Assembly (NCBI GenBank): GCA_964651155.1
Contig: CAZYXB010000004.1
Location: forward strand, 46,386-110,385
Reading direction: 5' to 3'
DNA length: 64,000 nt
Source: an uncultured Acidobacteriota bacterium
GTDB taxonomy: Bacteria > Acidobacteriota > UBA6911
Position 1 is the stretch's first letter. Each line of letters opens with the position of its first letter. A program made the position numbers and the translations under genes. Of the stretch, positions 3,223 through 59,053 are shown piece by piece. A model generated the notes under the pieces. It did not search any database, was not told the origin of the DNA, and saw nothing but the letters and a program-made list of their open reading frames with translations.

Positions 3223-4746
3223 ATGCCGCTGCTTCTGCCGGTACTGACCGGTCTGCTACTGGCCGCTTCCTTCCCGAAATGCGGCCAGCACTACCTGGCC
3301 TGGATCGCGTTTATCCCCTTGATCGCGTACGTGCATCTGGCCCGGTCGCCCGCACGGGCCTTCCGGGGCGGATGCCTGGCCGGGGGTGTCGAGCTGTTCG
3401 TTCTTCTCGTCTGGATGCCCGAGGTTCTCCACCTCTACGGGGGATTGGACCCGTGGCTTGCCTGGACGGGGTACGCGCTTCTGGTCCTGTTGCTGTCCTC
3501 ATTTTCGGGCGCGGCCTGCTTGGCGACCAAGGCGCTCATGCTGCGGGGGGGCGATTGCTGCATTCTGCTGTTCCCCGCGGTCTGGGTCCTGGTCGAATTT
3601 CTGCAGACGGCGATCCCCTTCGGCGGCTTCCCCTGGCTGGCGACGGGGTACACGCAGACCGAGAACCTGGCCCTGATACAGATGGCCGACGTGACGGGGG
3701 TGTTCGGCGTATCGTTTCTGGTCGTGTGGTTTTCGGCGGCGGCATTGTTCGCCGGGCTCCACAGGGGGCGCGGGATGCGGGCATGGTGGCCCATTCTTGC
3801 GGCGGCGGCGCTGCTTGCCGTCGGCCTGGGGTACGGCAGGGCTCGACTGGCGCGCTGGGCCGGAGTCCGGCCCGATCATACGGCCGTTATGCTGCAGGCG
3901 AATCTGCGGGCCGACGCATCCCCGGGCGCTTTACGGGAGGCCTACCCGGCCGGTTATGTGCGCATGCTCGACAGCGCCCCGCCTTCGCGCATCGACCTGC
4001 TGATTCTGCCGGAATCGCCGACCCCCGTGTTCTACCAGCAGGATGAAACACTGCGGCAAACGGTCTCGGAACTGGCCCGGCGCGCCACCTTCGGCCTGGT
4101 CTTCAACAATATCCGGATCGGGGATGCCGACGGCGGAATGCGCTCCTATAACAGCGCATATTTTCTCGACGCCGGGGGCGGGTTGACGGGGGTGTACGAC
4201 AAGATACACCTGGTCCCCTTCGGCGAATATATCCCGATGAAGGGTTTGTTCGTGTTCATGCGGACCATCACGCAGGATGTGGGGGAGTTCGACCGCGGGA
4301 ACGTGTATGCTCTCCCGCGGGTGGGGGGGGAGCGCGTCAATGCGACTATCTGCTTCGAAGCCATTTTCCCCGGCCTTGTGCGCAGGTTCGTCCGGGACGG
4401 AAGCCGTCTCATCGTCAATCTGACCAACGACGGGTGGTACGGCCGCAGCAGCGCTCCGTTCCAGCATTTCAATATCGCCCGGTGGCGCGCCGTCGAAAAC
4501 CGCAGGTATTTTCTCCGTTCGGCCAATACGGGGATATCGGCGGTTATCGAGCCGACCGGCAGGGTTCAGACCGCGACCGGGATCCTCGAGCGGGCGGTGT
4601 GCGAGGGCCGGTTCGCGTTTGTCGCGCAGCAAACATTCTATACCCGTTATGGCGATGTTTTCGTCTGGCTGTGTGCTATGATTGTCTTCGGGTGCGCGGT
4701 CCCCGCCTATGCCAAGGGTCGGGGAAGGCCCATGTCCCACCCATGA
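3223..4746 (+). CDS. lnt: Apolipoprotein N-acyltransferase
   Basis: Multi-TM N-terminal half followed by a CN-hydrolase domain (ICFEAIFPGL...LTNDGWYGRSSAPFQHFNIARWRAVENRRYFLRSANTGISAVIEPTG). Confidence 0.85.
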   Translation: MPLLLPVLTGLLLAASFPKCGQHYLAWIAFIPLIAYVHLARSPARAFRGGCLAGGVELFVLLVWMPEVLHLYGGLDPWLAWTGYALLVLLLSSFSGAACLATKALMLRGGDCCILLFPAVWVLVEFLQTAIPFGGFPWLATGYTQTENLALIQMADVTGVFGVSFLVVWFSAAALFAGLHRGRGMRAWWPILAAAALLAVGLGYGRARLARWAGVRPDHTAVMLQANLRADASPGALREAYPAGYVRMLDSAPPSRIDLLILPESPTPVFYQQDETLRQTVSELARRATFGLVFNNIRIGDADGGMRSYNSAYFLDAGGGLTGVYDKIHLVPFGEYIPMKGLFVFMRTITQDVGEFDRGNVYALPRVGGERVNATICFEAIFPGLVRRFVRDGSRLIVNLTNDGWYGRSSAPFQHFNIARWRAVENRRYFLRSANTGISAVIEPTGRVQTATGILERAVCEGRFAFVAQQTFYTRYGDVFVWLCAMIVFGCAVPAYAKGRGRPMSHP

Positions 4747-4863: not shown

Positions 4864-5971
4864 ATGCTCGACGAACTGCAGCAGAGGGTAAGCGCGATCG
4901 AAGAAAAACTATACCAGATCCGGGGTTATCTTTGATGCCGACCGCAAGCGCGCAAAGGTTCTGGAGCTTGAAAAGAAAGTGGCCCAGCCCGATTTCTGGA
5001 GTAGGCACGAGGAGGCGCAGTCGGTACTGCAGCAGCGGCGCCGGCTCGAGCGGGACATCGAGCTCGGTGATCGCCTGGCGAGGGAGGGGGCGGACCTGAG
5101 GGCGCTCTACGAGCTGGCTGCCGAAGGGGAGGACGTCTTGCCCGACCTCGCCCGTGAAGTCGAGAAACTCGAGCAGGAAGCACGGCATACGGAGATCCTC
5201 ATGCTGCTTGCCGGGGAGCACGACAGCGCCAACGCCATTGTGACGATACACCCCGGCGCCGGCGGCGTGGAGTCGCAGGACTGGGCCGAGATGCTCGTCC
5301 GCATGTACCTGCGATGGTGCGAGCGCTCCGGCTACGTCGCCAAAATGCTCGACTACCAGCCCGGGGAGGAGGCGGGGATCAAGTCGGTCACCTTCCTGGT
5401 GGAGGGCGATTTCGCCTACGGGTACCTTTCGTCGGAAAACGGCGTCCACCGTCTGGTCCGCATATCCCCCTTCGGCGCCATGGGGAAACGGCAGACGAGC
5501 TTCGCCTCCGTCTTCGTCTACCCCCAGATCGACGACGAGATCGAGGTCCAGATCGACGAGAAGGATCTGCGCATCGACACCTACCGTTCCAGCGGCGCCG
5601 GGGGCCAACATGTCAACGTGACGGATTCCGCCGTGCGCATCACCCACATCCCGACGGGGATTGTCGTTTCCTGCCAGAACGAAAGATCACAGATCCGGAA
5701 CCGCGAAATGGCCCGGACCGTGCTGCGGGCCCGGATCTATGAGCTGGAACTGAAGAAGAAACAGGAGCAAATGCAGGCCATGGAGGATTCCAAGCTGGAA
5801 ATCGGGTGGGGAAGCCAGATCCGCTCCTACGTGCTGCACCCGTACCGCATGGTGAAGGACCACAGGACCAAGCACGAATCGCCCAATGCGGACAGGGTTC
5901 TCGACGGGGACATCGAGGACTTCATCTACACCTACCTGGTGCATCGAGGGGTGCGGCAACGGGACGCCTGA
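4864..5971 (+). CDS. prfB: Peptide chain release factor 2, requiring a programmed +1 ribosomal frameshift at CTT-TGA (4930-4935)
   Basis: ORF1 (MLDELQQRVSAIEEKLYQIRGYL, stop TGA at 4933-4935) and ORF2 in the +1 frame (DADRKRAKVLELEKKVAQPDFW...SSGAGGQHVN...) together give a full RF2. The slip site is ggggt tat ctt tga, with an SD-like GGGG 3 nt upstream as in E. coli prfB. Confidence 0.9.
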
Positions 5972-6001: not shown

Positions 6002-6742
6002 GTGGATTCTGAAGACAGCAGGACCCCGGGGCAGGCCCCCGCAAGGGCGAAGCAAACGTCCGGGGCAGGGCGGTCCCGAAAAGGCAGGACGGTAGTGTAT
6101 ACGGGCCTGCTCCTTTTCAGTATCATCGCCTGCACGGTGATGCTCGGCGTCCCCTCAGTCCGCGGACGCCTGGTCGCCCGGGCCACGGCCCTGCAGGCGG
6201 CGATATCCGGGTCGCGCGGCCCGGTGACGGCCGAGCTCGGGGACGTGCCTCCGCCCATGCCGGGGGAATACGAAAGGCCGGAGTACAGGTTCCCGGATGC
6301 CGGGCAGACGCTTCCCGAAGACTGGGTGTTCACCGTGCCGCCGGGGCGTGCCGCCGAGCGGCCCCAGGCGGGATCCGCCCTAATGACGCCCCGGACGGCG
6401 GAAGACGACCGTGCCTCCGCCGCCGGGGTCTCCGAAGGGACGGCCGCAGGTCGCGGCTCGGAAACAGCCGGAGCCGTCATCGAATACACGGCCGGGGAAG
6501 CGGAACGCCGCGCCTACGGCCTGCTGCTCGAAGCCAAACCGCATGTCGGGGCGATGGTGGATGAGGGCGCCCCGTCGCGGAGGTTCCGGTCCTGGGGAGG
6601 CGCACCAAGGGGGGGAGACGTCTACTGGGTGCGTCTGGTGTTTGAGACCGGCGAAGGTCTCGAGGTTGAGTATATCTGGCAGGTGGACCTGCAGGCGAAG
6701 GAGGTTCTGCCTTTGAGCCATAATGCGCGCACGCTTCCCTGA
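6002..6742 (+). CDS. Hypothetical membrane-anchored protein with a possible PepSY-like C-terminal domain
   Basis: Single TM (VVYTGLLLFSIIACTVMLGV). C-terminal GDVYWVRLVFETGEGLEVEYIWQVDLQAKEVL resembles a PepSY fold. Start uncertain (alternative start codon). Confidence 0.4.
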   Translation: MDSEDSRTPGQAPARAKQTSGAGRSRKGRTVVYTGLLLFSIIACTVMLGVPSVRGRLVARATALQAAISGSRGPVTAELGDVPPPMPGEYERPEYRFPDAGQTLPEDWVFTVPPGRAAERPQAGSALMTPRTAEDDRASAAGVSEGTAAGRGSETAGAVIEYTAGEAERRAYGLLLEAKPHVGAMVDEGAPSRRFRSWGGAPRGGDVYWVRLVFETGEGLEVEYIWQVDLQAKEVLPLSHNARTLP

Positions 6743-6792
6743 TGCGCGCGCCGAGGGTGCCGTGAGGGCCCCGCGGCCTGACAGGAGTATCT

Positions 6793-9303
6793 TTGCGCCC
6801 CATCTCTCTGCGACATATCCGCCGCATGCTGATCTGGGTCATCGTGCTGGTCGCCCTGGCTGTCGCCGTCGACTATTTCTACGCGCGGTATCTCCGGAAT
6901 CGCCTCGGCCCGGAGCACCGCCAGGTCCTCGATTCGGAAATGGTGCAGTCCTCCCTGCGCATCGAGTATTCCGAGAACAAGGATGGCGTGCTCCGGTTCA
7001 GGATACGCGCGCAGAAGCTCGAAGAGACGCGCGGGGGGAAGAACTACCTGCAGGGGATCGAGGCCTACGACTTCAACCCGGACGGGAGCGTGCGCAACGA
7101 AATCCGGAGCCTGAAGGCCGAGTACGACAGCGAAAACCGGAAAGTTGGTTTTACCGGCGATGTGAGGTTGTTCCTGGGGAGGGAGGCAAAACTGCAGACC
7201 GAGTCGCTGTCCTACGACCTGGCATCGAATGTCGGCACCACCGCGGACCGGGTGCGCTTCGATGCCGGCGGGGCCGCGGGCAGCGCGCAGGGACTGTACT
7301 ACAACCTCGACACTCGCCTGCTCCGCCTCGAGTCCGACGTGGAGGTCCGGATCGCCCCGGAGGAGCCCTCCTCCGGGGGGGCCGGTTTGCAGCAGGCGGT
7401 GCATGTCTCCTCAGACAGGGCAATCTCCCACGATAACCTTAACAGGATCGCTTTTTCCGGCGACGCGCGGCTGGAGTCCGAAGCGCTTCTGCTCACTGCC
7501 GACGTGATCCGGGCGGTGATGGGCCCGGGGGCCGGGAGGATCGCCTCGCTCGACGCCGCGGGCCGCGCGCACTACCGGTCCGGGGCGGCCGGGGATGCCG
7601 GGGGCATGTCCGGCGACCGGATGGTTTTCCGTATACGGCCCGGGTCCCGATACCCTCAATCCATTGGCATTTCCGGTGGCGCAGAGCTCGATATCGGAGC
7701 GCCCGGGGACATGCAGCGCCTGCGCGGTGAGGAGATCGATCTGTCGCTGGATCCCGAAACCGGAATGCCCTCCCAAGTCGAGGGCCGGACCGGTGTGCGG
7801 CTCCTGATCGCAAGCGGCGCGGAGCGGACGTTCATTTCGGGCGAGAGCTTCAGCGCCCGCTTTTCTCCGGGGACAGGGGGATTGCGCGACATCGAGGCCC
7901 GGCAGCGGGCGCGCCTATCCCTGAGCGGCTCCGGGGAGGGGGAAGCAAATGCCATCACCGCAGGGCTGATCGGCATCCGGTTCGAAGAGGTCGGCCGCCA
8001 GCCCGTTCTCCGGCACCTCCGTGCCGAGGATTCCGCCCGGTGGACATTCCCCAGGGAGGGCTTCGGCGCGCCGTCGGCCCCTCCCGATGCAGCGGCGGCA
8101 TCCTCGGGATTTCTAACGGCGGCCGTCATCGAAATGCAGTATTCCGGGGACGGCGGGGTGCTCGACAGAGTCGACGCCTCCGGCGATGTCGTTATGGCCG
8201 AGGCCTCCCCGGCCGTCGCGGGCGATAGCACGGGGCGCATGGTGTATGCCGACCGGGCCCGGTTTTCTTTTTCCCGTGGCGGGCGCCGGCCCAGTGCCAT
8301 GGAAGCGGCAGGGCACGTGCGGGTTGTCGACGGCGGCGGCCAGGGTTCCGGGGGCGGCTTCCGCACCTGGAGCGACAGGATGGAGGCGGCTTTTGATCCC
8401 GGCGGCGAAGACATTACCCTTGCCTCCGCTTCCCAGTGGGGGCATTTCAGATACGAAGACGGATCCAGTTCCGCAACGGCGGGGAGGTGCGATTACGATG
8501 CCGAAAGCGAGACGATCCGCCTGGGGGATTCCCCGGTGATCATCTTCGACACGGGCACCACTGCGGGAGAGGCGGTTGAGTTCGACCGGCGACGCGGGAT
8601 CGTCCGGGTCCGCCGCGGGGTCCGCACCGACCTGTCGGGGAGGAGTGCGGCGGGTTTCCCCGGGGGTGCCCGGAAGGGTTCGCCCGGCGTCATCTTTGCC
8701 GGGATCATGCGCTACGACACGGCTTCAGGCCAGGTGCGGTACACCGAAAGGGTCTACCTGCTGTCGGAGGACCAGCAGCTCCGGGCCGATTCCCTGGACA
8801 TCCTCGAAGGAGGGGCGCGGCTCGAGGCCCGCGGCGGTATCCGGCACATCATTTCCCGGAACCGCGTCCCCGACGCGGCTGGGAGCCCCAGCTCCCCCGG
8901 GCCCGGTCCCCCCGCGAAAGAGGAGGGACATTCCCCCGGCATGCCGATATATATTGAGAGTTCGAATTTGGCGTTTGCGAACATGACGAACACCGTAACC
9001 TATGCAGGCGGCGTTTCCCTGGAGACCGGGGACATCCGCCTGACCTGCCGAACCCTCGATGTTGTTCTGGACGCGGGGGGGGGGGCCGTCGACGCTGCCA
9101 CGGCAACGGGAAACGTGGTGGCGGTCATGGGGGGAAAAAAGTGCACGGGCGATGTCGGGCATTATTTCCGCGAACCCGAGAGATTCGTGGTGACGGGCTC
9201 GCTCGCGGAATTGTACGACCCGGCCAGCGGACGCTCCTACGCCCCCCGGTTGACATACACTGTCGCCGATGGTAGGATGCAGCTGGAACAGCATCAGAAT
9301 TGA
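6793..9303 (+). CDS. Large LptC/LptA (OstA-like) multi-domain periplasmic protein. N-terminal TM anchor, then repeated beta-jellyroll-like segments and low-complexity linkers
   Basis: N-terminal TM IWVIVLVALAVAVDYF followed by an LptC-like segment. C-terminal NMTNTVTYAGGVSLETGDIRLTCRTLDVVLDAGGG...ATGNVVAV is LptA-like. Sits directly upstream of lptB, the conserved lptC-lptA-lptB order. Gly/Ser/Ala-rich linkers. Confidence 0.6.
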   Translation: MRPISLRHIRRMLIWVIVLVALAVAVDYFYARYLRNRLGPEHRQVLDSEMVQSSLRIEYSENKDGVLRFRIRAQKLEETRGGKNYLQGIEAYDFNPDGSVRNEIRSLKAEYDSENRKVGFTGDVRLFLGREAKLQTESLSYDLASNVGTTADRVRFDAGGAAGSAQGLYYNLDTRLLRLESDVEVRIAPEEPSSGGAGLQQAVHVSSDRAISHDNLNRIAFSGDARLESEALLLTADVIRAVMGPGAGRIASLDAAGRAHYRSGAAGDAGGMSGDRMVFRIRPGSRYPQSIGISGGAELDIGAPGDMQRLRGEEIDLSLDPETGMPSQVEGRTGVRLLIASGAERTFISGESFSARFSPGTGGLRDIEARQRARLSLSGSGEGEANAITAGLIGIRFEEVGRQPVLRHLRAEDSARWTFPREGFGAPSAPPDAAAASSGFLTAAVIEMQYSGDGGVLDRVDASGDVVMAEASPAVAGDSTGRMVYADRARFSFSRGGRRPSAMEAAGHVRVVDGGGQGSGGGFRTWSDRMEAAFDPGGEDITLASASQWGHFRYEDGSSSATAGRCDYDAESETIRLGDSPVIIFDTGTTAGEAVEFDRRRGIVRVRRGVRTDLSGRSAAGFPGGARKGSPGVIFAGIMRYDTASGQVRYTERVYLLSEDQQLRADSLDILEGGARLEARGGIRHIISRNRVPDAAGSPSSPGPGPPAKEEGHSPGMPIYIESSNLAFANMTNTVTYAGGVSLETGDIRLTCRTLDVVLDAGGGAVDAATATGNVVAVMGGKKCTGDVGHYFREPERFVVTGSLAELYDPASGRSYAPRLTYTVADGRMQLEQHQN

Positions 9304-9333: not shown

Positions 9334-10065
9334 ATGATAAACGGCCTACTGCAGGCGTCGGCCCTATGCAAGTCCTACCGTGGGAGGAATGTAGTCGACC
9401 AGGTCAGCCTTGAGCTGTGTCCGGGCGAAGTGGTCGGGCTTCTGGGCCCGAACGGAGCCGGGAAGACGACGACATTTTACATCATCGTCGGCCTGATTGC
9501 GCCCCAGAGCGGGAGGGTGCGTCTTTTCGGCGAGGATATCACGCACCAGCCGATGTACCGTCGGGCCCGTTCCGGGATCAGTTATCTGCCACAGGAGCCT
9601 TCCGTTTTCCGGAAGCTGACCGTGGGAGAGAACCTTTTGAGCATTGCGGAAACCCTGGATCTGTCGCACAGAAAACGGGAGCACCTGGTCGGGGGGCTCC
9701 TCGAAGAATTCGGGATCGACCATCTGCGCCAACAGAACGCCCATACCCTGTCGGGCGGGGAAAGGCGACGGCTGGAAATCGCCCGCGCTCTGGTCCTTAC
9801 GCCGCAGTTCATTCTTCTGGACGAGCCGTTTGCCGGCATCGATCCGCTGGCGGTTCTCGACATACAGCGCATCATCAGGGGGCTGAAAGACCGGAATATC
9901 GGGGTCCTGATCACGGACCATAACGTGCGCGAAACTTTGAATATAACGGATCGCGCTTATATAATAAGCGAAGGCAGGATCCTGCGGGAAGGGTCGCCCG
10001 AACAGCTCACAAACGACATCGAGGTCAAGAAGGTATACCTCGGCGAGAATTTCAGGTTGCATTAG
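9334..10065 (+). CDS. lptB: LPS export ABC transporter ATP-binding protein
   Basis: Walker [10 protein letters not shown], signature [15 protein letters not shown], Walker [13 protein letters not shown]. Immediately upstream of rpoN. Confidence 0.9.
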
Positions 10066-11519
10066 TGGACACGAACCGAAAACCATTTTTAAGGCAGTCC
10101 CTGGATTTGCGTCTCAGCCAGAGACTGGCCTTGACCCCCTCGTTGCTTCAAAAAATTGAGCTCCTGCAGCTCAACAAACTGGAGCTGCAGGAGATGCTGA
10201 ATCAGGAGCTGGTCGAGAACCCCATTCTCGAGGAGGTTCTCGAGCAGGAGGAACCAACGGAAATCAACGCGGGGGACCCGTTGGCGGACACCGTGGTTGA
10301 GGCGCCCAGCGGACAGGAAGGGCCCGATTCCTTTGAGGAGATAGATTTTCGCTACTTTTTCGACGAATACCTCGATACGGGGTACAAGAGCCGGGAATAC
10401 GAAGATTCGGAGAAACCGTCCTTTGAAACGTTCCTGACCCAGGCCCCCTCTCTGGAAGAGCATCTGAACTGGCAGCTTGGGCTGTCGGACACCCGGCCTG
10501 AAATCGCCGAAATCGCCCGCATGATCATCGGAAACCTCAACGAAGACGGCTATCTGCTCCTGAGCCTCGAAGAGCTTTGCACGGTTGCCCGATGTACCCC
10601 GGAAAACGCCGCCGAGGCTCTCAAAGTCGTTCAGAACATGGACCCGCTGGGGGTGGGGGCGCGGGATTTGCGCGAGTGCCTTCTTCTGCAGCTCGCCGCC
10701 CTCGACCTCGAGCAGAGCCTGTCCTACAGGATCGTTCAGGACCACCTCGGGCTGCTCGAAGGCCACAAGATCAAGGAAATCGCCTCCAGCACGCACTCGA
10801 CGTTCGATGAAGTGGTGGCGGCCATCGAATGCATCAAGCGCCTGATACCCCGGCCGGGCCTGAAGTTCAGCAACCAGACACCGAATTACGTGCAGCCGGA
10901 AGTGACCATCACGAAGGTGGATGACGAGTTTGTCATTCTCCTCAACGACGAGGGCATGCCGCAGCTGAGGCTGAACGCCAGCTACAGGGACCTTCTGAAA
11001 AGCAACGGCGTCCCCAGCGAAACCAAGACGTACCTGAGGGAGAAATTCCGCTCCGCCGTCGATCTGCTGCGGAGCGTCAATCAGAGGAAGCAGACCATCT
11101 ACAAGGTCTGCGTCTGCATCGTGAACAGGCAGAAGGATTTTCTGGAAAACGGCTTCTCCCATCTGCACCCGATGCTGATCAAGGATGTCGCCGGCGAACT
11201 GGGAGTTCACAGTTCCACCATCAGCCGGGTCGTGACCAATAAATACGTCGATACCCCGCAGGGCGTGATCGAACTGCGGAAGTTCTTCACCATGGGGCTG
11301 GAAAACCAGGATGGCGAAGGTCTATCCATCATCCAGGTCAAGATGAAGATCAAGGCGCTGCTTGAGAACGAGGACAAGCAAAAGCCATACTCGGACAACC
11401 AGCTGGAAAAGCTGCTGCGCCGCGAGAACATCTTCATCAACCGGAGAACGGTGGCCAAATACCGGGAACAGATGCAGATTCCGGGATCGCGCGAACGGAA
11501 AGTCCGATATCTTTTCTAA
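10065..11519 (+). CDS. rpoN: RNA polymerase sigma-54 factor
   Basis: GTG start overlapping the lptB stop. Acidic region I/II, then C-terminal HTH and RpoN box ARRTVAKYREQMQIP. Confidence 0.9.
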   Translation: MDTNRKPFLRQSLDLRLSQRLALTPSLLQKIELLQLNKLELQEMLNQELVENPILEEVLEQEEPTEINAGDPLADTVVEAPSGQEGPDSFEEIDFRYFFDEYLDTGYKSREYEDSEKPSFETFLTQAPSLEEHLNWQLGLSDTRPEIAEIARMIIGNLNEDGYLLLSLEELCTVARCTPENAAEALKVVQNMDPLGVGARDLRECLLLQLAALDLEQSLSYRIVQDHLGLLEGHKIKEIASSTHSTFDEVVAAIECIKRLIPRPGLKFSNQTPNYVQPEVTITKVDDEFVILLNDEGMPQLRLNASYRDLLKSNGVPSETKTYLREKFRSAVDLLRSVNQRKQTIYKVCVCIVNRQKDFLENGFSHLHPMLIKDVAGELGVHSSTISRVVTNKYVDTPQGVIELRKFFTMGLENQDGEGLSIIQVKMKIKALLENEDKQKPYSDNQLEKLLRRENIFINRRTVAKYREQMQIPGSRERKVRYLF

Positions 11520-16775: not shown

Positions 16776-18866
16776 ATGGCACGCTATATAGTCTCGATCA
16801 TGTTAGCCCTGTCTATAGCGAATGTGCACGCCTGGGCCGATTCTGCAGACGATGACTACAACCGCCTCGCGCGCGTCGCCTACATGGAGGGTCCCGTGAG
16901 CTTCCAGGGCGCCGGCGACGTCGACTGGAGCGCAGCGGCGGTCAATTTCCCGTTGCAGCCGGGAGACAGGCTGTATACGGGGCTCAAGGGGCGGGCCGAG
17001 ATTGAATTCGACGACGGCTCCGTGTTGCGCCTGGCCGAGGGTACGGACATCCAGATCCTATCGCTCAGGGAAGACCTCATCCAGATACGCATCCTGACCG
17101 GCCTTTCCTCCCTGATGGTTTCCAGCAACCTTGAATTCGAGGTGGATACCCCTGCGGCGGCCTTCGTCATGCTGCGCGAGGGCTCCTACCGGTTCGAAGC
17201 GGACGACGGAGGCGATACCAGCGCCATTGTGCGCAAGGGGGAAATGGAGGCGATCAGCCACCGTTTTGTCCGCAGGGTCCGTGCGGGCGACCGGATCCTG
17301 GTGACCGCGGATCCGAACAGCACCTACCAGTTTTCCAGTCACTACGGACGGGACGCGTGGGATGAATGGAACGATCGCCGGAACGTCGACAGGATCGTGC
17401 ACGGCAGCCGGCAGTACGTGCCCGACAGCGTCTATGTCGGGGTTTCCGACCTGGATAGGCATGGAAGGTGGGTGACCGTGGAGTCCTACGGGGCTGCGTG
17501 GATTCCATTCTCGGTCGGCGTCTCCTGGTCCCCTTACACGGTCGGCCGATGGTGCTACCGGCCGGTGTGGGGGTGGACCTGGGTTTCCTATGAGTCCTGG
17601 GGCTGGCTCCCGTATCATTACGGCAGATGGTACCGCAGCGCGAACTACGGATGGTGCTGGCTGCCGGGGCCGTCGTTTTCCTTTGATTTCTGGTCCCCCG
17701 GCCTGGTCACCTTCTACCATGGCCCCTCCTGGGTATCCTGGTGCCCTCTGGGCCCGGGCGACTACTACAGCATCAACAATTACTACTACAACGCCAGGGT
17801 GCACCGCCATCGCCTGGGCGATCTGAGGAAACTGCACAGCAGGCCCGCCGGGGATCCTTTCAACCGGCATGTCCGCGACGCGTTCCGGACCGTGCATCTG
17901 GATCACTTCCGGGACGGGCGTTCCCGCGCTGTTGCGACCGACCAAGGGTATGCGAGGATAGAGAAACCCTGGGAACGGGGAACCCTGGTTCGGGAGCGGC
18001 TTGCCGTCGAGCCGACTAAGATGAGCTTCAACCCCGATCCCGGCCGTCAGGTGGTGCGTTCGAAGGTCGTGAACCCGAAACCCGCAGTGGTCTATTCCAG
18101 CCCGAACACCAGGGTCAACAGAAGCGACGCCTACGTGCGGATTCGCGACAGTGAGATCACCGCGCAGGCGGGGCGCAGTATAGCGCACGCCCGGAGTACG
18201 GCTCCGTCCGCCGGCGGGCGTGCCCCCGGTTCCGCCAGGGCCGGAGTCCGGGAGGATGCCGGACAAACGGTTCGCAGCCCTGTGCAGAAGAACCCGGATG
18301 CCCGGGGCGCCGAAGAGCGGGCAGGGCGGGCGACCGACTCCCCCGACGCCCGGAGCCCCCGAGCGGACATTCGCCGGGAACCCGGGAATCCCGCCGGGAA
18401 TCGCCCCCAATCCCAGCCGGCCTCGGAGATGCCGTCGCGGGATAGCCGGGACCGCGATTCCGCGCGGAGCCGCCCCGAGACCCCCGCCAGGCAGTCTGTC
18501 GAGCGTCCCACGACGCAACGGGCGGTAGACTCACGGGATTCCTCCAACGGCAGTTCCGGGAGCGGCCTCAACCGGCCGGCGATCCCGAGCGGGCGAGACG
18601 CGGGACCCACGCAACGGGAGGGCGTCGGCGGCGTCAGGTCGTATGCGCGACCGGCCGCGCCTTCCTACAGTATCGTCCGCCCGCCGACGGCAAGCAGCCG
18701 ATCGCGTGTCGCAACCCCCCCGGCTTCATCGGGCGGGATCCGCTCTGATCGGTCCCCGGCTTCCGGGCGCGGCTCAAGGAGCGCAGCCCGGCCGTCGGCC
18801 CCCTCGCGGGGCAGCTCCCCAGGGGAACCCGACAGCGCGCGCAAGGCCGTCAAACGCGGCAAATGA
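16776..18866 (+). CDS. Secreted FecR-domain protein with a Trp/Tyr-rich repeat region and a roughly 250-aa Arg/Ser/Pro-rich disordered C-terminal tail
   Basis: Signal peptide MARYIVSIMLALSIANVHA. FecR-like LQPGDRLYTGLKGRAEIEFDDGSVLRLAEGTDIQI. W-rich block WVSYESWGWLPYHYGRWYRSANYGWCWLPG. Tail rich in RS/RD/SP dipeptides. Confidence 0.6.
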   Translation: MARYIVSIMLALSIANVHAWADSADDDYNRLARVAYMEGPVSFQGAGDVDWSAAAVNFPLQPGDRLYTGLKGRAEIEFDDGSVLRLAEGTDIQILSLREDLIQIRILTGLSSLMVSSNLEFEVDTPAAAFVMLREGSYRFEADDGGDTSAIVRKGEMEAISHRFVRRVRAGDRILVTADPNSTYQFSSHYGRDAWDEWNDRRNVDRIVHGSRQYVPDSVYVGVSDLDRHGRWVTVESYGAAWIPFSVGVSWSPYTVGRWCYRPVWGWTWVSYESWGWLPYHYGRWYRSANYGWCWLPGPSFSFDFWSPGLVTFYHGPSWVSWCPLGPGDYYSINNYYYNARVHRHRLGDLRKLHSRPAGDPFNRHVRDAFRTVHLDHFRDGRSRAVATDQGYARIEKPWERGTLVRERLAVEPTKMSFNPDPGRQVVRSKVVNPKPAVVYSSPNTRVNRSDAYVRIRDSEITAQAGRSIAHARSTAPSAGGRAPGSARAGVREDAGQTVRSPVQKNPDARGAEERAGRATDSPDARSPRADIRREPGNPAGNRPQSQPASEMPSRDSRDRDSARSRPETPARQSVERPTTQRAVDSRDSSNGSSGSGLNRPAIPSGRDAGPTQREGVGGVRSYARPAAPSYSIVRPPTASSRSRVATPPASSGGIRSDRSPASGRGSRSAARPSAPSRGSSPGEPDSARKAVKRGK

Positions 18867-19070
18867 TTCGTGCCCGGCTGCATCCGCCGGAACCTCAATG
18901 GCGGCGGGTGCAGCCAGAGGCTTTCTTTCCTCCTCCCGAAATATCCCGGCATGGTGTATAACGAGGGCAATGCGGCCCGCAGGGAAGGGGTATATACTGC
19001 GGGCTTCCGGGTCCTTGCGGCATCCGGCTGCGGGCCGGCCATAGAAGGATCAAGACGGGGATGGCATGTC

Positions 19071-19670
19071 ATGGATCATAGGGCGGAACTAGTCCGGGAA
19101 AGAATACGCGATTCCATCAGCATGAAGCGGCGGCTCCAGGAGGACGCGACGATGACAGCGTTGGTTTTGCGGGCCGCCGACGTCATGTCGCAGGCGCTCG
19201 AGCGGGGGGGGCGCGTGCTGTTCTGCGGCAACGGAGGGAGTGCCGCGGATGCCCAGCATTTTGCGGCCGAACTGTGCGGGAGGTTCCTTGCCGACCGGGA
19301 GCCTTTGGATGCCGAGGCGCTGCACGTCAACACCTCCTGCATCACAGCCGTGGCCAACGATTACGGTTACGAGGAGGTGTATGCGAGGCTTGTGCGCGCC
19401 AAGGGGCGCCCCGGGGATGTTCTTGTCGGGCTATCCACGTCCGGGAACTCGCCCAATGTTGTGCGGGCGTTCGAAGCGGCGCACTCTGCGGCACTGTCCA
19501 CCATCGGACTGACCGGGGAGGGTGGCGGGGCCCTGGCAGGTCTGAGCGACGTGCTGATCGCCATTCCTTCCCGATCCGCGCCGCGCATCCAGGAGGGGCA
19601 CCTTCTGGTGGGCCATATCCTGTGCGAACTGGTCGAAACGGCATGCGGCTCCAGGGGCGGAAGGGAATGA
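19071..19670 (+). CDS. gmhA: Phosphoheptose isomerase (SIS domain)
   Basis: LFCGNGGSAADAQHFAAEL...VLVGLSTSGNSPNV. Start ATG at 19071, in frame with ORF 18870. Confidence 0.85.
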   Translation: MDHRAELVRERIRDSISMKRRLQEDATMTALVLRAADVMSQALERGGRVLFCGNGGSAADAQHFAAELCGRFLADREPLDAEALHVNTSCITAVANDYGYEEVYARLVRAKGRPGDVLVGLSTSGNSPNVVRAFEAAHSAALSTIGLTGEGGGALAGLSDVLIAIPSRSAPRIQEGHLLVGHILCELVETACGSRGGRE

Positions 19671-20854
19671 CCATGCCCGCGGTGTATATTTTCCCGGGCG
19701 GATCCGGAGCCTGGGAGATGGTTCGGGTCTTTGGCCGGCCCCTTCTAGAGTGGCAGCTGTTGTGGCTCGCCCGGCAGGGATGCACCGATGTCGCCCTGTT
19801 GCCGGGGATGGGACTCGAACGCATCCGGGAGTATTTCCGGGACGGCCGCCGGTGGAACGTCTCGATCCGGTATGCGGCCGGCGATGGCCCCGGGTGCGTC
19901 CCAGGAGCCGAAGACGCATGCGTGATCCTAAACGGGGGGATGGTCTTCGACGTGCCGCTTGCGTGGCTGATCGAATACCGCCGCAGGTCGCTGGCCCGGG
20001 ATTCGGTCTGCTGCGCCCTCAAGTATGCGGAAACGGCGCCCCCACACGGCTGTGTCCGCGTTGATGCGTCCTGGGCCGTGTGCGCCCGAGGAGCGCCGGA
20101 GCGGGGGCAGACCGACGGCTACACCGACGGGGGCGTCTATGTCGCGGGATCGGAATTTGTATCCGGCGCCGGCATTGACAGGGGATTGATCGACAGCGCC
20201 GCCCTGCCGGGGCTTCTGGCCGCGCGGAAGCTGTTTGGCATTCCTTTCGGGGGTGGCTGCCTGGATATCGGCCACGCCGGCCGCCGGCTGCCGGCCGATA
20301 CGCCCATTGAGACATGGCTCCTCGGGGATAAAACGCCCACCCTGTTTCTGGACAGGGACGGCATCCTGATAGAGGACACCGGGTACGTCAAAGCTGCGGA
20401 TGGTCTGGTCTATGACGACAGGTTCTTCGAGTTGTCCCGAAAGGCCAGCGACAAAGGCTTCACCGTCGTTGTCGTATCCAACCAGGCCGGCGTCGCCAAA
20501 GGGTATATCGGGGTGGAGGACGTTGAAGCGGTCAACCGCCGGATCCTGGAAAGGTTCGAATCCTTCGGCGTGCGTCCGGCGGGTTTCTACTGGTGCCCGT
20601 ACCACGAAAAGGGGACGCGGCCGGAATGGACCCGGCGCAGCCTGCAACGCAAGCCCGAACCGGGAATGGTGCTGAAGGCCGTCGGGGATCACGGGATCGA
20701 CCCCCTGCGCTCCCTGATGGTGGGCGACAGAGACACCGATCGCATCCGGCTGCCCTACCTGCGCTCCTTCATCGTCCCGGGCAGGCACCGGGCGGAGGCT
20801 GCGGGGGACGTTGTGGACATTTCGGCGATTGAGCAGGCTCTTGAGGCCCTTTGA
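19667..20854 (+). CDS. Fusion protein: N-terminal nucleotidyltransferase-like domain plus C-terminal D,D-heptose 1,7-bisphosphate phosphatase (GmhB, HAD)
   Basis: ATGA overlap with gmhA. N-terminus AVYIFPGGSGAWEMVRVFGRPLLEWQLLWLARQGCTDVALL is NTP-transferase-like, but the GxGTRL motif is degenerate. C-terminus LFLDRDGILIEDTGYV...VVVVSNQAGVAKGY...GDRDTD is GmhB/HAD. Confidence 0.7.
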   Translation: MTMPAVYIFPGGSGAWEMVRVFGRPLLEWQLLWLARQGCTDVALLPGMGLERIREYFRDGRRWNVSIRYAAGDGPGCVPGAEDACVILNGGMVFDVPLAWLIEYRRRSLARDSVCCALKYAETAPPHGCVRVDASWAVCARGAPERGQTDGYTDGGVYVAGSEFVSGAGIDRGLIDSAALPGLLAARKLFGIPFGGGCLDIGHAGRRLPADTPIETWLLGDKTPTLFLDRDGILIEDTGYVKAADGLVYDDRFFELSRKASDKGFTVVVVSNQAGVAKGYIGVEDVEAVNRRILERFESFGVRPAGFYWCPYHEKGTRPEWTRRSLQRKPEPGMVLKAVGDHGIDPLRSLMVGDRDTDRIRLPYLRSFIVPGRHRAEAAGDVVDISAIEQALEAL

Positions 20855-21159
20855 TCCGCATCCTCCGGGCTCTCCACCCCCGGGAAGCGTTCCCTCCGCG
20901 CCGACCGAATCCGCGTCCCCGGTTCATCCTCCCCGGCGGTGGTGCTGCCTCGGGGTTGCCCCCAGGGTACATCCGGGAAGCGGAAGGCGGCCATCAGGCG
21001 TTCCTGGCGCGGGCGAAGCCGGAATGGCCCGGACGCATCCACGGCGGGCAAAGGGCCCGGGTATCGTTGCCGCGGTGCTTGACCCACGCCGCTTTCTTCG
21101 CTAGTCTCTTGGATCACAAAGCTGTAGAATCCGACCGTCCGTTCCAATCTGGGATAGGT

Positions 21160-22971
21160 ATGAACGCCTTCGACCAATTATATTCATTCGTGCGGCCCTA
21201 CCGATGGACGATCGTCCTCTCACTGGTTCTTCTCAGCTTGAGCGCGGTCGCCGACGCCCTGCTCATCGCCCTGGTCATCCCCCTGTTTGACCAGGTTTTG
21301 TCCCCGCAGCCCGACGTGACCGCGGCAGGGATGGGGCAGTTCGCCTTCCTTCAGGCGATTCTCGGCCTCGTTCCGGGAAGCATCGTCTGGAAGATATCGG
21401 TCAACCTGGTCGCATTGACCGTTCTTAAGGGCGTCTGCCTGTTCTGCTCCAACTATCTGATGGGCCGGGTTGGCCAGAGGGTGCTGACCGATCTCCGGAA
21501 TCTCCTTTTCCGTCATGTGATCGGGCAGTCCATGCGGTTTTTTTCCATCAACTCCACAGGGCACCTGATGTCGCGGATGGGGAGCGATGTCGAGCAGATT
21601 CAGGAAGCGGTTTCCACGGTGGTGGCCGAGCTGTTTCGCGAGGTCGTCGTGCTGGCGGCTATGCTGGCCTTGGTGTTCGTCCTGGACTGGAAGCTCGCTC
21701 TTCTGACCCTCGCGGTCGCCCCCCCGGCCTTCGGGCTGACCTACATGCTGGGGCGGCACACCCGCAGGGTCAGCATCCTGAGCCGCCAGGATACCGCGAA
21801 CATCAACGACCAACTGCAGCAATCGCTGACCGGGATGAGGATCATCAAGGCTTTCGGCTCGGAAGAGCACGAAACCCGGCGCTACAGGAAGAAGACGCTG
21901 GAGCTGTTCCGAAGCAACATGAAGGCGATGGCCTTCTTTTTCCTCAGCTCCCCGCTGATGGAGATCATCGGTGCGGTCGCCTTCATCCCGGTGCTGTTGT
22001 ACGCCCACGCCAATATATCCGACAGCGAGCTGACGCTGGGGATGTTCGGCAGCGGGCTTTTTGCCCTTTTCCGGATGTACGACCCGATACGCAAGCTGAG
22101 CCGGATCCACGTGAAGTTTCAACGGTCGCTGGCCTCGACCACAAGGATCTCGGAGCTGCTCAGCACCCATTATGCCATCCAGGACCGGCCCGGGGCGCGG
22201 ACCCTGGAGGGTATCGGGGATTCCATCGAGTTTCGAAACGTTTCCTTCAGCTACACGGAACAGAGCGGCACAACGGAGGTCCTGAAAAACATCAATCTGC
22301 AGGTGCGCCGCAACAGCGTCACGGCCATCGTGGGCAGCAGCGGGGCGGGCAAATCGACTCTGGCGGACCTGATCCCGCGTTTCCGCGACCCGACTTCGGG
22401 TGCCGTGCTCATCGACGGGACCGATATCCGCGAGTTCACCCAGGCGTCCCTCAGGCGTCAGATCGCCATCGTGACGCAGGAGACGTTTTTGTTCAACGAT
22501 ACGGTTCACAACAATATCGCCTATGGCGACAGGAATGCCTCCGAGGAACGGATCCTGGCAGCAGCGAAAGCGGCCTTGGCCCACGATTTCATCATGCGTT
22601 TCCCCAGGCAGTACCACTCCCCGATCGGAGAGCGGGGGCAGAGACTGTCCGGCGGCGAGCGCCAGAGGATATCCATCGCGCGGGCCCTGCTCAAGGACGC
22701 TCCCATATTGATACTGGATGAAGCGACCTCCAGCCTCGATTCCGAGTCGGAAAAACTGGTCCAGCAGGCGCTGTTGAACCTGATCCGCGACCGGACCACC
22801 TTCGTCATCGCCCACCGTCTTTCTACGGTCAGGAACGCAGACACGATCGTTGTACTTGAGAAGGGGGAAATAGTGGAATCCGGAGACCACCAGAGCCTGA
22901 TGGCCCTCGAGGGACGCTACTACCGGTTCTTCCGCCTCCAGAGCATTCCGCCTCTTGACGTAAAGCTTTGA
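21160..22971 (+). CDS. msbA: ABC exporter, fused permease/ATPase, MsbA-like lipid A flippase
   Basis: Six-TM N-terminal domain. Walker A GSSGAGKST, signature LSGGERQRISIARAL, Walker B ILILDEATSSLD. ATG at 21160 (MNAFDQLY). The upstream in-frame extension is rejected. Confidence 0.8.
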   Translation: MNAFDQLYSFVRPYRWTIVLSLVLLSLSAVADALLIALVIPLFDQVLSPQPDVTAAGMGQFAFLQAILGLVPGSIVWKISVNLVALTVLKGVCLFCSNYLMGRVGQRVLTDLRNLLFRHVIGQSMRFFSINSTGHLMSRMGSDVEQIQEAVSTVVAELFREVVVLAAMLALVFVLDWKLALLTLAVAPPAFGLTYMLGRHTRRVSILSRQDTANINDQLQQSLTGMRIIKAFGSEEHETRRYRKKTLELFRSNMKAMAFFFLSSPLMEIIGAVAFIPVLLYAHANISDSELTLGMFGSGLFALFRMYDPIRKLSRIHVKFQRSLASTTRISELLSTHYAIQDRPGARTLEGIGDSIEFRNVSFSYTEQSGTTEVLKNINLQVRRNSVTAIVGSSGAGKSTLADLIPRFRDPTSGAVLIDGTDIREFTQASLRRQIAIVTQETFLFNDTVHNNIAYGDRNASEERILAAAKAALAHDFIMRFPRQYHSPIGERGQRLSGGERQRISIARALLKDAPILILDEATSSLDSESEKLVQQALLNLIRDRTTFVIAHRLSTVRNADTIVVLEKGEIVESGDHQSLMALEGRYYRFFRLQSIPPLDVKL

Positions 22972-32672: not shown

Positions 32673-33049
32673 GGTGGGGGAAACCGGGCCGGGCTTCCAT
32701 CGGGTCCCGATGGCGGGGTGGGAGGGGGCATCTATTCCTGACGCAGGCCCCGCCCGAAACCGACAGGGATACGGAATGCCGCCGCGTTCTTGAACTGCCA
32801 GGTCCCCCTTGGTACCCTGAGTCCTTGCGGCCGGCGTCATGGATGGGATTGCGGGGAATGCAGCCTGCCCCGGCAACGGGCCGCAGGCTTCGGGATTTGC
32901 GGCTCCCAGGCGAAGTCTCACCCGGGAATTCAGGCCAATGCCCTCTTGTGCGGCCGAACGCAGGGGCCGGATCGAAGCCGGGAGCCTGACGACGGCGGGA
33001 ACGGGGAGTTCAGATGCAGGGGGCGGCGTCGAAACAACGTAGGCAGTCC

Positions 33050-33910
33050 ATGGCCGAGCAAACCGATAATCGAGGGCTTTCCTCTATGCGCCCCGTCAGG
33101 GTCGGATCCTTGCGTTTGGGCACCGGCCGGCGTCCGTTTTTCATCGCCGGTCCGTGCGTCATCGAGAGCGAACGTCATTGCCTGAAGATGGCCGAACATC
33201 TGGCCGGTTACGCAAAACGCCTGAAGATCGATCTGATTTTCAAGGCATCGTACGATAAGGCGAACCGTACATCGGGTGCGTCCTTCCGCGGCCCGGGAAT
33301 GGAACAGGGGCTGCGCATCCTCGAGAAGGTGCGCGATGCCACGGGTCTTCCGGTTCTGAGCGATGTGCATGAAAGCACCCAGGTGGCTGCCGCCGCGGAC
33401 GTTCTCGATTGTATCCAAATCCCCGCCTTTCTATGCCGCCAGACCGATCTCATCCTCGCGGCCGCCAATACCGGCCGCTGCGTCAATCTGAAAAAAGGGC
33501 AGTTCCTTTCCCCGTGGGAAATGGAAAAGGTCCTTGAAAAAGCCCGAAGCACGGGCAACCGCAATATCCTCGTGACCGAGCGGGGCACCTCCTTCGGATA
33601 CAACAACCTGGTGGTCGATTTCCGGTCTTTCGTCATCATGCGTTCTTTCAGGCAGCCTGTTGTGTTCGACGTCACGCACAGCGTTCAAGCCCCCGGAGGG
33701 CTCGGAAACAGCTCGGGGGGGGATTCGGCATACGTCCCCATTCTGGCCCGGGCAGGTGCGGCCGCCGGCGTGGACGGCTTCTTCTTTGAAGTGCACGACA
33801 ATCCGGGCAAAGCCCTTTCCGACGGGCCGAATGCCCTCGAGCTGAAGATGTTTCCGCACCTGGTCCGGGATATCCTGCGCATACGTAAGGCGCTCGGGAG
33901 GGCGTCGTGA
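33050..33910 (+). CDS. kdsA: 2-dehydro-3-deoxyphosphooctonate aldolase (KDO-8-P synthase)
   Basis: FFIAGPCVIESERHCLKMAEHLA...KASYDKANRTSGASFRGPG. Confidence 0.85.
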   Translation: MAEQTDNRGLSSMRPVRVGSLRLGTGRRPFFIAGPCVIESERHCLKMAEHLAGYAKRLKIDLIFKASYDKANRTSGASFRGPGMEQGLRILEKVRDATGLPVLSDVHESTQVAAAADVLDCIQIPAFLCRQTDLILAAANTGRCVNLKKGQFLSPWEMEKVLEKARSTGNRNILVTERGTSFGYNNLVVDFRSFVIMRSFRQPVVFDVTHSVQAPGGLGNSSGGDSAYVPILARAGAAAGVDGFFFEVHDNPGKALSDGPNALELKMFPHLVRDILRIRKALGRAS

Positions 33911-34884
33911 CCGATTCCGCCCTGCACCCGTCCCTGGCAGCCGCACTCCGTGTACTGGATTCGGAGGCGACCGCGATTCGCAACCTTATGGAGCGCGTGA
34001 ACGCGCTGTTTCTGCAAGCCGTGGATCTGGCCGAAGGGTGCAGAGGGAAAATTGCTGTCACGGGGCTCGGGAAGTCCGGCATCATATGCAAAAAAATAGC
34101 CGCGACCCTGAGCAGTACCGGATCCCCTGCTTTTTTTCTCCACGCGGCCGACGCCCTTCACGGAGACTGCGGGCTGCTCGGGAGCGAGGACATCCTTCTG
34201 GCAGTTTCCAAAAGCGGGGAAACCTACGAGATCCTCCAGGTATTGCATGTCTCCAAGCGTCTGGGCCTGCCCGTTATAGCCCTGGTGGGCGACAGGGACT
34301 CCAGCCTGGCGCGATTTGCCGATGTCTGTCTCGACGTAAGCGTCGGAGAGGAACCATGCCCGCTGGGGATGGCGCCAACGGCCAGCACGGCGGCGGCTCT
34401 TGCCATGGGGGATGCGCTCGCGATTGCGCTGATGGAGCGGAAGGGCTTCGGGAAGGAGGACTTCGCATCGCTGCATCCTGCGGGCAGTATTGGCAAGAAG
34501 CTGCTCCGGATCGGGGAATTGATGCACAAGGGGGATGCGATCCCCAGGGTTCTGTTCTCGGCCAGGATGCCGGAAGTGATTTGCGAGATGTCGAGCAAGA
34601 CCCTGGGAATGACGACCGTCGTGGACGCAAAAGGGGACCTTGTCGGCGTCATATCCGACGGAGACCTCAGGCGCCTGCTCGAACAGGAGCCGGATCCCCT
34701 GAAACTGTCGGCCGACCGGGTGATGAACCGGAATCCGAAAACGATCCACGAGAGGGAACTGGCTGGCGCCGCGCTGGCGAAGATGGAATCCATGAAGATC
34801 ACGAGTCTCGTGGTGGTCGATTCGGACAGGAAGGTCTCAGGCGTCGTGCATATCCATGACCTGTGGCGAACGGAGCTTTTTTGA
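33907..34884 (+). CDS. kdsD: Arabinose-5-phosphate isomerase (SIS domain plus tandem CBS)
   Basis: SIS motif VTGLGKSGIICKKIAATLSSTGSPAFF. C-terminal CBS pair. ATGA overlap with kdsA. Confidence 0.85.
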   Translation: MTDSALHPSLAAALRVLDSEATAIRNLMERVNALFLQAVDLAEGCRGKIAVTGLGKSGIICKKIAATLSSTGSPAFFLHAADALHGDCGLLGSEDILLAVSKSGETYEILQVLHVSKRLGLPVIALVGDRDSSLARFADVCLDVSVGEEPCPLGMAPTASTAAALAMGDALAIALMERKGFGKEDFASLHPAGSIGKKLLRIGELMHKGDAIPRVLFSARMPEVICEMSSKTLGMTTVVDAKGDLVGVISDGDLRRLLEQEPDPLKLSADRVMNRNPKTIHERELAGAALAKMESMKITSLVVVDSDRKVSGVVHIHDLWRTELF

Positions 34885-34976: not shown

Positions 34977-35468
34977 TTTGATATATTGTCATGACACGTG
35001 GAATCCGGGTCGTCAGTGTTTTTCGCTCACGAAGGAGATATTTCAGCAAGAAAGCAGTCTCGGGCCTCCTTGCGGGCATCAGGCTTTCCTCCTATCTTGG
35101 TTGAGATAAACCTTATCAGCGGTTGTCCAGCGTCGCTTGTTCTCTTTCTAAATGATTCCGGTAGGATCTTGGGCCGTCATTCCGGTCCCATCTTGGCCAC
35201 CTGTTCCGTTTCACCTCCAAACAGTGGCCAACTTCCACCGGAATTCGAAGGCAACGCTTGATGCGATCAGCAACAGGGTGAGGGGGCAGCAATTGCACTT
35301 GAAAAAAACCGCGACAAAAAGTAAAGTACTTGCCATGCAACAATATACTGAATCGCAATCGAAGGCTGTAAAACAAAACGCGAGGGGAAATTCATATTCT
35401 TGTTGTACCTTTGTTGCGCCTGAAAACAGCGAAAACGATAAGGTTTAGATAATAAAGCAGTTGTATGA

Positions 35469-35543
<75 letters not shown>

Positions 35544-35787
35544 GTCAAACCCATTGAATCACTACCACTAACAGGAAAGCCCAGAACACCCCCGGCGGTC
35601 CCCGTTTTGGCGTTTTCGGCCCTGTTGCAGCTGTGTTGCAGATTTTCCCCTGCAATAGCTGGTAGGGAGTTTATCCAGTCGTGCCCTTTTTGCGGCTGTT
35701 GATGTCCGTACTGTGTAACTGTGAGCTCAATACTGCTGTGCCCGAGCCATTCTGCAATGAAAGCAATCGGCGTTCCGTTGTTCAGGT

Positions 35788-35813
35788 GGGTTCGATCCCC
35801 GTCTCCCGCTCCA
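35788..35813 (+). repeat. Direct repeat: exact 26-nt copy of the tRNA-Gly 3' end (att-like)
   Basis: gggttcgatccccgtctcccgctcca is identical to tRNA positions 50-75, about 245 bp downstream of the tRNA. Confidence 0.7.
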
Positions 35814-36091
35814 TGAAATTAATCCCCTATAGACACGTTCCACGGGAGGATCCTATGCGCCATCAGCCCGCCCGCTGCAATTAAGAATATCCTCGATGGC
35901 CCCAGATTGCCTTCCAGGCCCCCTCCAATTTTCCCTACAGTACTGGATCGTAGTGTCAACGCAAAAGGGAACCCCCCCAAATTAGAATAAGGGTCTCCAA
36001 TCAATCTAGGTATAAAAGTCTGGGTCTTCATCGGAATTTGTGGGTGAAATGAACCATAAAAAGGCTGGCCTGATGGAAATGCCGCCTCTGC

Positions 36092-36118
36092 GGAAATCCC
36101 TAAAAAGCGCGGATTTCC
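36092..36118 (+). repeat. Inverted repeat GGAAATCC-N11-GGATTTCC
   Basis: Seen directly in an intergenic, island-like region. Half-sites are related to the GGAAT/ATTCC 14-mer. Confidence 0.4.
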
Positions 36119-36268
36119 ACAAGCTGCCCGGGGAAGTCCGGCCGAAAAGCGCCCATATTTCTCCAAATGACCAAAGGCCCTATCATGATTCCATCTCTTG
36201 AATTCTGAACCGCGGGACTATTGGCCCTTCAAGCAATGCCAAGGCTCGCTGCGTTAGTTGTTTGCGGA

Positions 36269-36282
36269 GGAATTAGGATTCC
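36269..36282 (+). repeat. Second copy of the 14-mer GGAATTAGGATTCC
   Basis: Identical to 32650-32663. Expected by chance fewer than 0.001 times in 64 kb. Confidence 0.4.
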
Positions 36283-36731
36283 AATCGCACACAGATTCTT
36301 CCGAGGATGTCTTGTTTCATTCAAGACTCCCTACATACACCACCCGGAGAGGGGCGAATTCCTGCAACGTAACGTCCCGACGGCCGTTCGTCAACCGGTG
36401 GAGGCGCGGGGAACCCAACGCAGCGGCGTGGCGTTTTTGGGGATCTGCCACTAATTGCACGGATTTATAAGGCGACGCACTCACGTAGAGTTCCGGAGGC
36501 ACAACGCCGTCGTTGGAAGTTACGCCGATCCGGAGTGCCAGAGGCACAATTCCGTGAAAAGTCAATCAGGGTACCACCGACGTCGAGTGCCGGAGGCACG
36601 GTGCAGCTTAGCCCGGGGCGGCGGAGCCCCGGGGGTGGAATAGGAAAAGAGACGAATCCTGAAAGGACGATGCAAATGCACCGCACCGGAGGCGCTTGTT
36701 TTACCGACGATCAAATACCGACTGCCAACCA

Positions 36732-58827: not shown

Positions 58828-59053
58828 GGGACGGTCTCCTGTCGGAAAGCCGGCGACAGCCGCAGAGGATGGAAGTGCCGGCAACAACGATCGAATAACG
58901 GAATCCATTCTACCGGTATCGGGTTTTGCGTGGCAATCATTATCGGGCAGCCGAACCGGTTTCTTCGGAGCGGAAAGCAGAGGCCCATGGTTTCTGTTTT
59001 CTTCACCGGGGAAGTGATGCTAGGATGCTCCATTCTCTGGCAAAGGATAGGGC

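Follow-up and report, generated by a model that had tools for sequence, protein, structure and literature searches.

A natural LptC–LptA-type fusion with several LptA-like modules as a candidate single-chain lipopolysaccharide bridge in Acidobacteriota

How does lipopolysaccharide (LPS) reach the outer membrane when neither a usual LptC nor a usual LptA is encoded in front of lptB? This question is raised by a stretch of 64,000 nucleotides (the window) from an uncultured Acidobacteriota bacterium of the lineage UBA6911, in which an open reading frame (ORF) of 836 amino acids (aa) lies directly upstream of lptB–rpoN. The protein is probably a natural LptC joined to a tandem array of LptA-type jellyrolls, which would constitute a single-chain LPS bridge to LptD. 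According to the predicted structure, about six LptA-type modules would be stacked in one membrane-anchored chain that takes the place of the small LptC and LptA proteins at their usual locus. A first-pass annotation of the window had described such a fusion; the coordinates, the length and the position upstream of lptB–rpoN that it gave agree with the ORF listing and with the TIGR04406 match of lptB.

Domain content of the protein

The ORF is intact. It starts with the TTG at 6793, which is the first possible start past the in-frame stop at 6763-6765 and lies 5 nucleotides 3′ of an AGGAG motif, and the N-terminus of its product lines up with the N-termini of the homologues in the alignment. 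A gap of 30 nucleotides separates it from lptB, and neither the ORFs nor the domain search revealed a separate lptC or lptA between lptB and the 246-aa gene that precedes the fusion. The elements concerned, in window positions, are:

6783..6787, plus strand: Shine-Dalgarno-like AGGAG, read from the sequence
6793..9303, plus strand: putative lptC–lptA fusion gene, 836 aa and stop (ORF; full-length homologues; Pfam and NCBIfam matches)
9334..10065, plus strand: lptB, LPS exporter ATPase, directly 3′ of the fusion (TIGR04406, 361 bits, cut-off 240)

Both types of Lpt domain are recognized in the protein. The LptC models match with 60.6 bits (PF06835, cut-off 21, aa 19-186) and 68.5 bits (TIGR04409, cut-off 38), and the OstA/LptA model PF03968 matches with 65.2 bits (cut-off 20.4), its best stretch being aa 720-803. 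Similarly, when the family profile was compared with PDB sequences, positions 713-828 corresponded to residues 5-125 of Escherichia coli LptA and positions 199-269 to LptA residues 6-76 (E 8e-5). The middle pieces of the protein itself give OstA matches below threshold only; the excised middle region (aa 195-700) of homologues, for its part, scored 38-65 bits on PF03968 in 10 out of 10 cases, with stretches that recur at three places (~aa 207-315, 535-605, and 629-682). In profile–profile comparisons (hhalign), positions 200-297 and 629-684 were paired with the C-terminal positions 716-803 (probability 96%) and 716-776 (97%), respectively, positions 536-607 with 759-832 (90%), and positions 309-418 with 440-555 (89%). 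These profile matches indicate that the middle of the chain is related to the C-terminal LptA-like module and that internal repeats are present. The several OstA-like segments announced by the first-pass annotation are thereby borne out, and the chain is not a single LptC domain followed by unrelated sequence.

How should such a protein be classified? Like LptC, it is predicted to have a single N-terminal transmembrane helix and a periplasmic beta-jellyroll; however, LptC is a single jellyroll of ~190 aa, whereas this chain has 836 aa and its LptC-like part is confined to aa 19-187. The jellyroll fold of LptA is also predicted, but LptA is a soluble protein of ~160-200 aa with its own signal peptide, and the LptA-like modules are here internal or C-terminal in a membrane-anchored chain. 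No LptD barrel family, which would signal the C-terminal outer-membrane beta-barrel of LptD, was found among the Pfam matches, and whole-chain Foldseek alignments to LptD had TM-scores of ~0.2 and a root-mean-square deviation of ~40 Å. Because the LptC and OstA domains are both detected, while the size and solubility of the separate proteins and the cut-off of the LptA equivalog are not attained, the protein is best described as an Lpt-family fusion and not as a member of the LptC or LptA family alone.

One could also envisage that the chain spans the periplasm to conduct not LPS but phospholipid or lipoprotein, much as the AsmA/TamB/YhdP bridges do or in the manner of the lipoprotein route proposed for Borrelia. 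This is suggested by a weak Foldseek resemblance to lipid transfer proteins of the bridge-like type (LPD-3, E 5.6e-4; ApoB100) and by the lipoprotein role proposed for the Borrelia Lpt pathway (10.1101/2022.12.21.521298). This explanation is very improbable: the sequence-level matches are all to LptC or LptA, six overlapping pieces of the protein gave no match to AsmA or DUF490-type families at E<=10, the gene adjoins an lptB equivalog, and LPS core-synthesis genes are found within the window.

Conservation and gene order

A word-indexed search of 5.8 billion proteins identified 16 relatives, nearly all of them full-length (790-852 aa), which share 31-47% identity with the fusion and align with it end to end with few gaps; PF06835 and PF03968 are both present in all 16. 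The E-values of the full-length relatives (0 to 1e-102) exclude a chance ORF. A profile search over 1.84 billion cluster representatives yielded 9418 matching clusters at E<=1e-3, of which 1090 pass E<=1e-30; among the best 150, most are 730-920 aa long, and those below this length have the appearance of truncated fragments. Members of the family measure between ~726 and 921 aa, a difference of one to two modules. Wherever the source names an organism, it is always a member of the Acidobacteriota: Blastocatellia, "Acidobacteria bacterium", or the cultured Chloracidobacterium thermophilum and C. aggregatum. The member from C. thermophilum (WP_014100026.1, UniProt G2LIS1) has 742 aa and bears the PGAP name "LptC"; more generally, database copies are numerous and are labelled "LptC", "LptA" or "LptC/LptA". 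The single-chain design is thus conserved across the Acidobacteriota, and the architecture that the first-pass annotation called unusual is so relative to Proteobacteria, but it is the norm in this phylum and not a peculiarity of one genome.

The gene order is also conserved. When one genome per GTDB species was scanned with nine closer sequences as query, 15 loci with the fusion gene were found, all of them in metagenome-assembled genomes of Acidobacteriota, including UBA6911 and a "gp18" bin. The fusion is followed by lptB–rpoN–hpf–rapZ in 15 of the 15 loci, with hprK too in most of them, and preceded by lnt–prfB and the 246-aa gene in every related locus that extends that far. A 921-aa relative, on a 6.4-Mb contig, is again located directly upstream of lptB–rpoN–hpf–rapZ. 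Long contigs with the gene include ERZ26165376:ctg355702 (6.4 Mb) and CAVZBT010000012 (1.6 Mb).

In this respect, a frameshift or missed stop that merged a normal lptC with a normal lptA during assembly or annotation has to be considered, as high-GC DNA does yield long spurious ORFs; no other support for such an artefact was found. An LptC and an LptA would total just ~370 aa as against 836, and the protein aligns with its relatives end to end, at 31-47% identity and with near-invariant module lengths. It is present in 15 independent genomes, which match its frame throughout and keep the same synteny, in the 1090 clusters mentioned above, and in complete genomes of cultured Chloracidobacterium. 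The conservation data have already refuted this explanation, which retains next to no probability.

The remaining genes around the fusion in the window are:

3223-4746: lnt
4865/4979-5971, plus strand: prfB
6002-6742: conserved 246-aa gene, function unassigned
10065-11519: rpoN
3′ of rpoN: hpf, hprK and rapZ, in that order

The prfB gene, which encodes release factor 2, carries the classical programmed +1 frameshift site at ~4928-4937 (plus strand), TAT CTT TGA T after GGGG; its short first frame opens with the ATG at 4865, and 4979 is the listed start of the main ORF. The interval between hpf and rapZ is without hprK in five loci (L005, L013, L014, L015, and L016), and hprK is present in the window and in most of the others.

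Modules, loops and bridge length

An AlphaFold2 model was built with the 16-sequence alignment, and its strands were assigned with DSSP. The model, with a mean pLDDT (per-residue confidence) of 79.3 and a pTM (predicted template modelling score) of 0.62, has a helix at aa 5-37 and then a succession of 48 strands between aa 50 and aa 832. Low-confidence stretches are limited to aa 37-54, 193-199, 380-383, 423-436, 473-479, 517-520, 617-628, 691-714, and the last three residues. The predicted hydrophobic helix is in line with the membrane-anchored polypeptide of the first-pass annotation, and no A-x-A cleavage motif is conserved among the homologues. The predicted parts of the chain, all on the plus strand, are:

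6805..6903, plus strand: N-terminal transmembrane anchor helix, LptC-type, aa 5-37 (AlphaFold and DSSP; hydrophobic core MLIWVIVLVALAVAV)
6940..7353, plus strand: module 1, LptC-like beta-jellyroll, aa 50-187, 11 strands
7399..7749, plus strand: module 2, OstA/LptA-like, aa 203-319 (LptA profile match; hhalign 96%; PF03968 matches in homologues)
7750..8049, plus strand: module 3, beta-hairpin array, aa 320-419, which repeats the initial part of module 4 (hhalign 89%; confident long strands)
8107..8634, plus strand: module 4, aa 439-614, C-terminal part OstA-like (hhalign 90%; PF03968 in homologues at ~aa 535-605)
8686..8853, plus strand: module 5, half-size OstA-like unit, aa 632-687, 4 strands (hhalign 97%; PF03968 matches in homologues)
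8854..8946, plus strand: longest loop or linker, aa 688-718, Pro/Gly/Ser-rich and variable in sequence (pLDDT <50 at aa 691-714)
8947..9288, plus strand: module 6, complete LptA-like jellyroll, aa 719-832, 8 strands, presumed LptD-docking end

The structured modules show 35-51% pairwise identity among homologues and are almost invariant in length, whereas the loops between them measure 9-31 aa and share 17-28% pairwise identity. The Gly/Ser/Ala/Pro-rich linkers that had been noticed in the first pass are real, as these residues make up 67-79% of the loops at aa 188-202, 420-438, 615-631, and 688-718; however, their length is that of short loops, and the predicted beta structure around them is almost continuous. 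The corresponding share in relatives is 38-60%, and this richness is mainly a trait of the high-GC genome studied.

The last of these loops (aa 688-718; 17% pairwise identity, 13-31 aa long in homologues) is the longest, the least confident and the least conserved, and it stands exactly before the only complete LptA-like module, which could evoke a polyprotein that is cut there to free a C-terminal LptA-like protein. Nevertheless, the alignment contains no conserved cleavage motif in this loop, Lpt systems offer no precedent, five other modules would stay fused, and the pTM of 0.62 suggests that the chain is modeled as a single body. Such processing is quite improbable.

How far would an uncut fusion of ~88 kDa extend? 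Beyond the 11-strand LptC-like module there are 37 strands. One LptA can be counted as ~8 rungs, since the 8-strand C-terminal module covers the region that aligns with the whole E. coli LptA core, and the 37 further strands therefore correspond to ~4-5 LptA equivalents if some of them, which are very short, are allowed for. According to published modelling, each added LptA contributes ~35 Å, and the centers of the inner and outer membranes lie 185-325 Å apart for 1-5 LptA, four copies being the variant most cited (10.1101/2023.04.28.538765). On this scale, the modeled chain would add ~16-18 nm beyond LptC, enough to reach LptD without free LptA; with the LptC module included, a total of ~20-24 nm would be expected.

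LptC associates with LptB2FG and regulates its ATPase, and LptA binds LPS and contacts LptC with its N-terminal edge and LptD with its C-terminal edge; for the fusion, the observed link to the exporter is the genetic one to lptB. By analogy with LptC, the N-terminal helix and the LptC-like module may be anchored in the inner membrane with LptB2FG. LPS extracted by LptB2FG would then be pushed along a continuous hydrophobic groove through modules 2-6, and the C-terminal LptA-like module would join the N-terminal jellyroll of LptD edge-to-edge. Indirect support comes from the genetic linkage to lptB, from the LPS genes of the window, from the lack of another LptC- or OstA-like ORF in the regions searched (the window and the flanks of related loci) and from the in vitro function of an engineered E. 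coli LptC–LptA fusion (PMC12065857). The length of such a bridge would be genetically fixed, and a free oligomerizing LptA would not be needed. The ORF and its conservation, its Lpt-type domains, its fold as predicted and its place in the lptB–rpoN operon are results of this analysis; we infer the continuity of the groove, the docking to LptF/G and LptD, the length and the dispensability of free LptA.

Several points weigh against this single-chain bridge. The LptA equivalog TIGR03002 is reached with 68.2 bits, just below its cut-off of 71.7 (NF008143: 13.8 for a cut-off of 234). The head-to-tail stacking and the continuous groove are predictions drawn from the pTM and the secondary structure only, the low-confidence loop of 24-31 aa that precedes module 6 could serve as a hinge or be cleaved, and the window contains no LptD, LptF or LptG with which docking could be tested. 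In addition, the 742-aa member of C. thermophilum CP072632.1 (L017, 10001-12229) sits between a GH3 gene and an asparaginase gene, outside any lptB operon, which makes the operon linkage lineage-specific and not universal. Finally, a free LptA may be encoded elsewhere in the genome, as the search covered the window and the related loci rather than whole genomes. Within that scope, lineage-specific hidden Markov models, which are weak for divergent LptA, revealed no other LptC- or OstA-like ORF, either in the window or in ~300 kb of flanks at 16 related loci, and no free LptA appeared among the ~38 window ORFs scanned with Pfam. The replacement of free LptA is consequently shown at the level of the locus, with the window and these flanks, rather than at that of a whole genome.

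Some of these points would also suit an extended LptC that covers only part of the periplasm and leaves the rest of the bridge, up to LptD, to a soluble LptA from a separate gene elsewhere in the genome: the limits of the free-LptA search and the isolated Chloracidobacterium gene both favor it, LptA is essential in Proteobacteria, and lpt genes are often dispersed outside Proteobacteria (PMC8871954). Against it, no free OstA-like ORF was detected in the regions searched, and this arrangement is rated as rather unlikely because the chain already terminates in a complete LptA-like module and, with its ~4-5 LptA equivalents, matches the longest E. coli bridge models. The single-chain bridge thus remains the preferred reading for this locus; the broader proposition that one covalent polypeptide fully replaces free LptA across the Acidobacteriota is evenly balanced.

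LPS genes of the window, known systems and significance

Other LPS-related genes are scattered over the window (18870-22971 and 33014-34884), and a HAD-like phosphatase region is also found among them:

18870-19670: GmhA-like SIS protein
20851-22971: MsbA-like ABC exporter, 706 aa
33014-33910: KdsA
33907-34884: KdsD

In E. coli, the operon order is kdsD–kdsC–lptC–lptA. A comparable lptC/lptA pair behind kdsA–kdsD (33-35 kb) was ruled out, as the gene-poor stretch past kdsD (35000-36700) holds just a tRNA and a small RNA: tRNA-Gly(CCC) at 35469-35543 (plus strand) and Acido-Lenti-1 (RF01687, 42.7 bits) at 36586-36633 (minus strand). The latter is independent evidence that the window is of acidobacterial origin. 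The window also encodes a 696-aa FecR and DUF6600 protein (16776-18866, plus strand) and a 340-aa DUF6599 protein (57886-58908, minus strand).

The fusion shares with E. coli LptC and LptA (LptB2FGC-A-DE) the fold, the PF06835 and PF03968 domains, the N-terminal transmembrane anchor, the site upstream of lptB–rpoN and, presumably, the head-to-tail jellyroll bridge for LPS. It differs in being one polypeptide instead of two or more, in the absence of a cleavable signal peptide from its LptA part, which narrowly misses TIGR03002, and in the ~4-5 LptA equivalents that would be covalently joined at a fixed stoichiometry, whereas the number of LptA in the E. coli bridge is not established (PMC10094684; 10.1101/2023.04.28.538765). 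LptC is also covalently joined to LptA in an engineered E. coli fusion, which is functional in vitro and has been used for reconstitution (PMC12065857); that construct is artificial and has one LptA unit, while the present fusion is natural, conserved in a phylum and composed of several units. Lineage-specific lengthening of the jellyroll through added beta strands is also known in Borrelia burgdorferi LptA (BB0465), for which the modeled bridge length matches the periplasmic width (10.1101/2022.12.21.521298); however, BB0465 is still soluble and separate and is lengthened by just four strands, and LptC is a lipoprotein there. AsmA-like proteins, TamB and YhdP may be alike in principle, as single membrane-anchored chains with a long beta groove that spans the periplasm, but they belong to a different sequence family, and their presumed cargo is phospholipid, with no dedicated ABC extractor, in contrast to the lptB-linked Lpt families found here. 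No description of a natural LptC–LptA fusion, of a multi-module bridge, or of Lpt in Acidobacteria or Chloracidobacterium was found in the searchable full-text literature, the UBA6911 genome paper included and subscription-only papers being outside this scope. The protein thus appears to be an Lpt-family member of new architecture, a natural fusion of LptC with multiple LptA units in an otherwise known system.

A natural single-chain bridge with countable modules bears directly on the question of LptA number. It offers a defined object for cryo-electron microscopy and cryo-electron tomography, which cannot dissociate or over-oligomerize as purified LptA does (PMC12065857), and the 742-aa member of the cultured C. 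thermophilum provides an accessible carrier. Since annotation pipelines say just "LptC" or "LptA", phylum-level Lpt surveys may wrongly count LptA in Acidobacteriota, be it as absent or as present; in addition, compounds aimed at the LptC–LptA interface would find no such interface to hit here. If one chain does fully replace free LptA across the Acidobacteriota, the length and stoichiometry of the bridge would be genetically encoded, and the junction with LptD would be the sole joint still able to assemble and disassemble. The E. coli machine, with its unsettled number of LptA copies, would then have a natural counterpart of fixed stoichiometry. The protein could then be a molecular ruler matched to the width of the periplasm, and chain length should track periplasm width across lineages.
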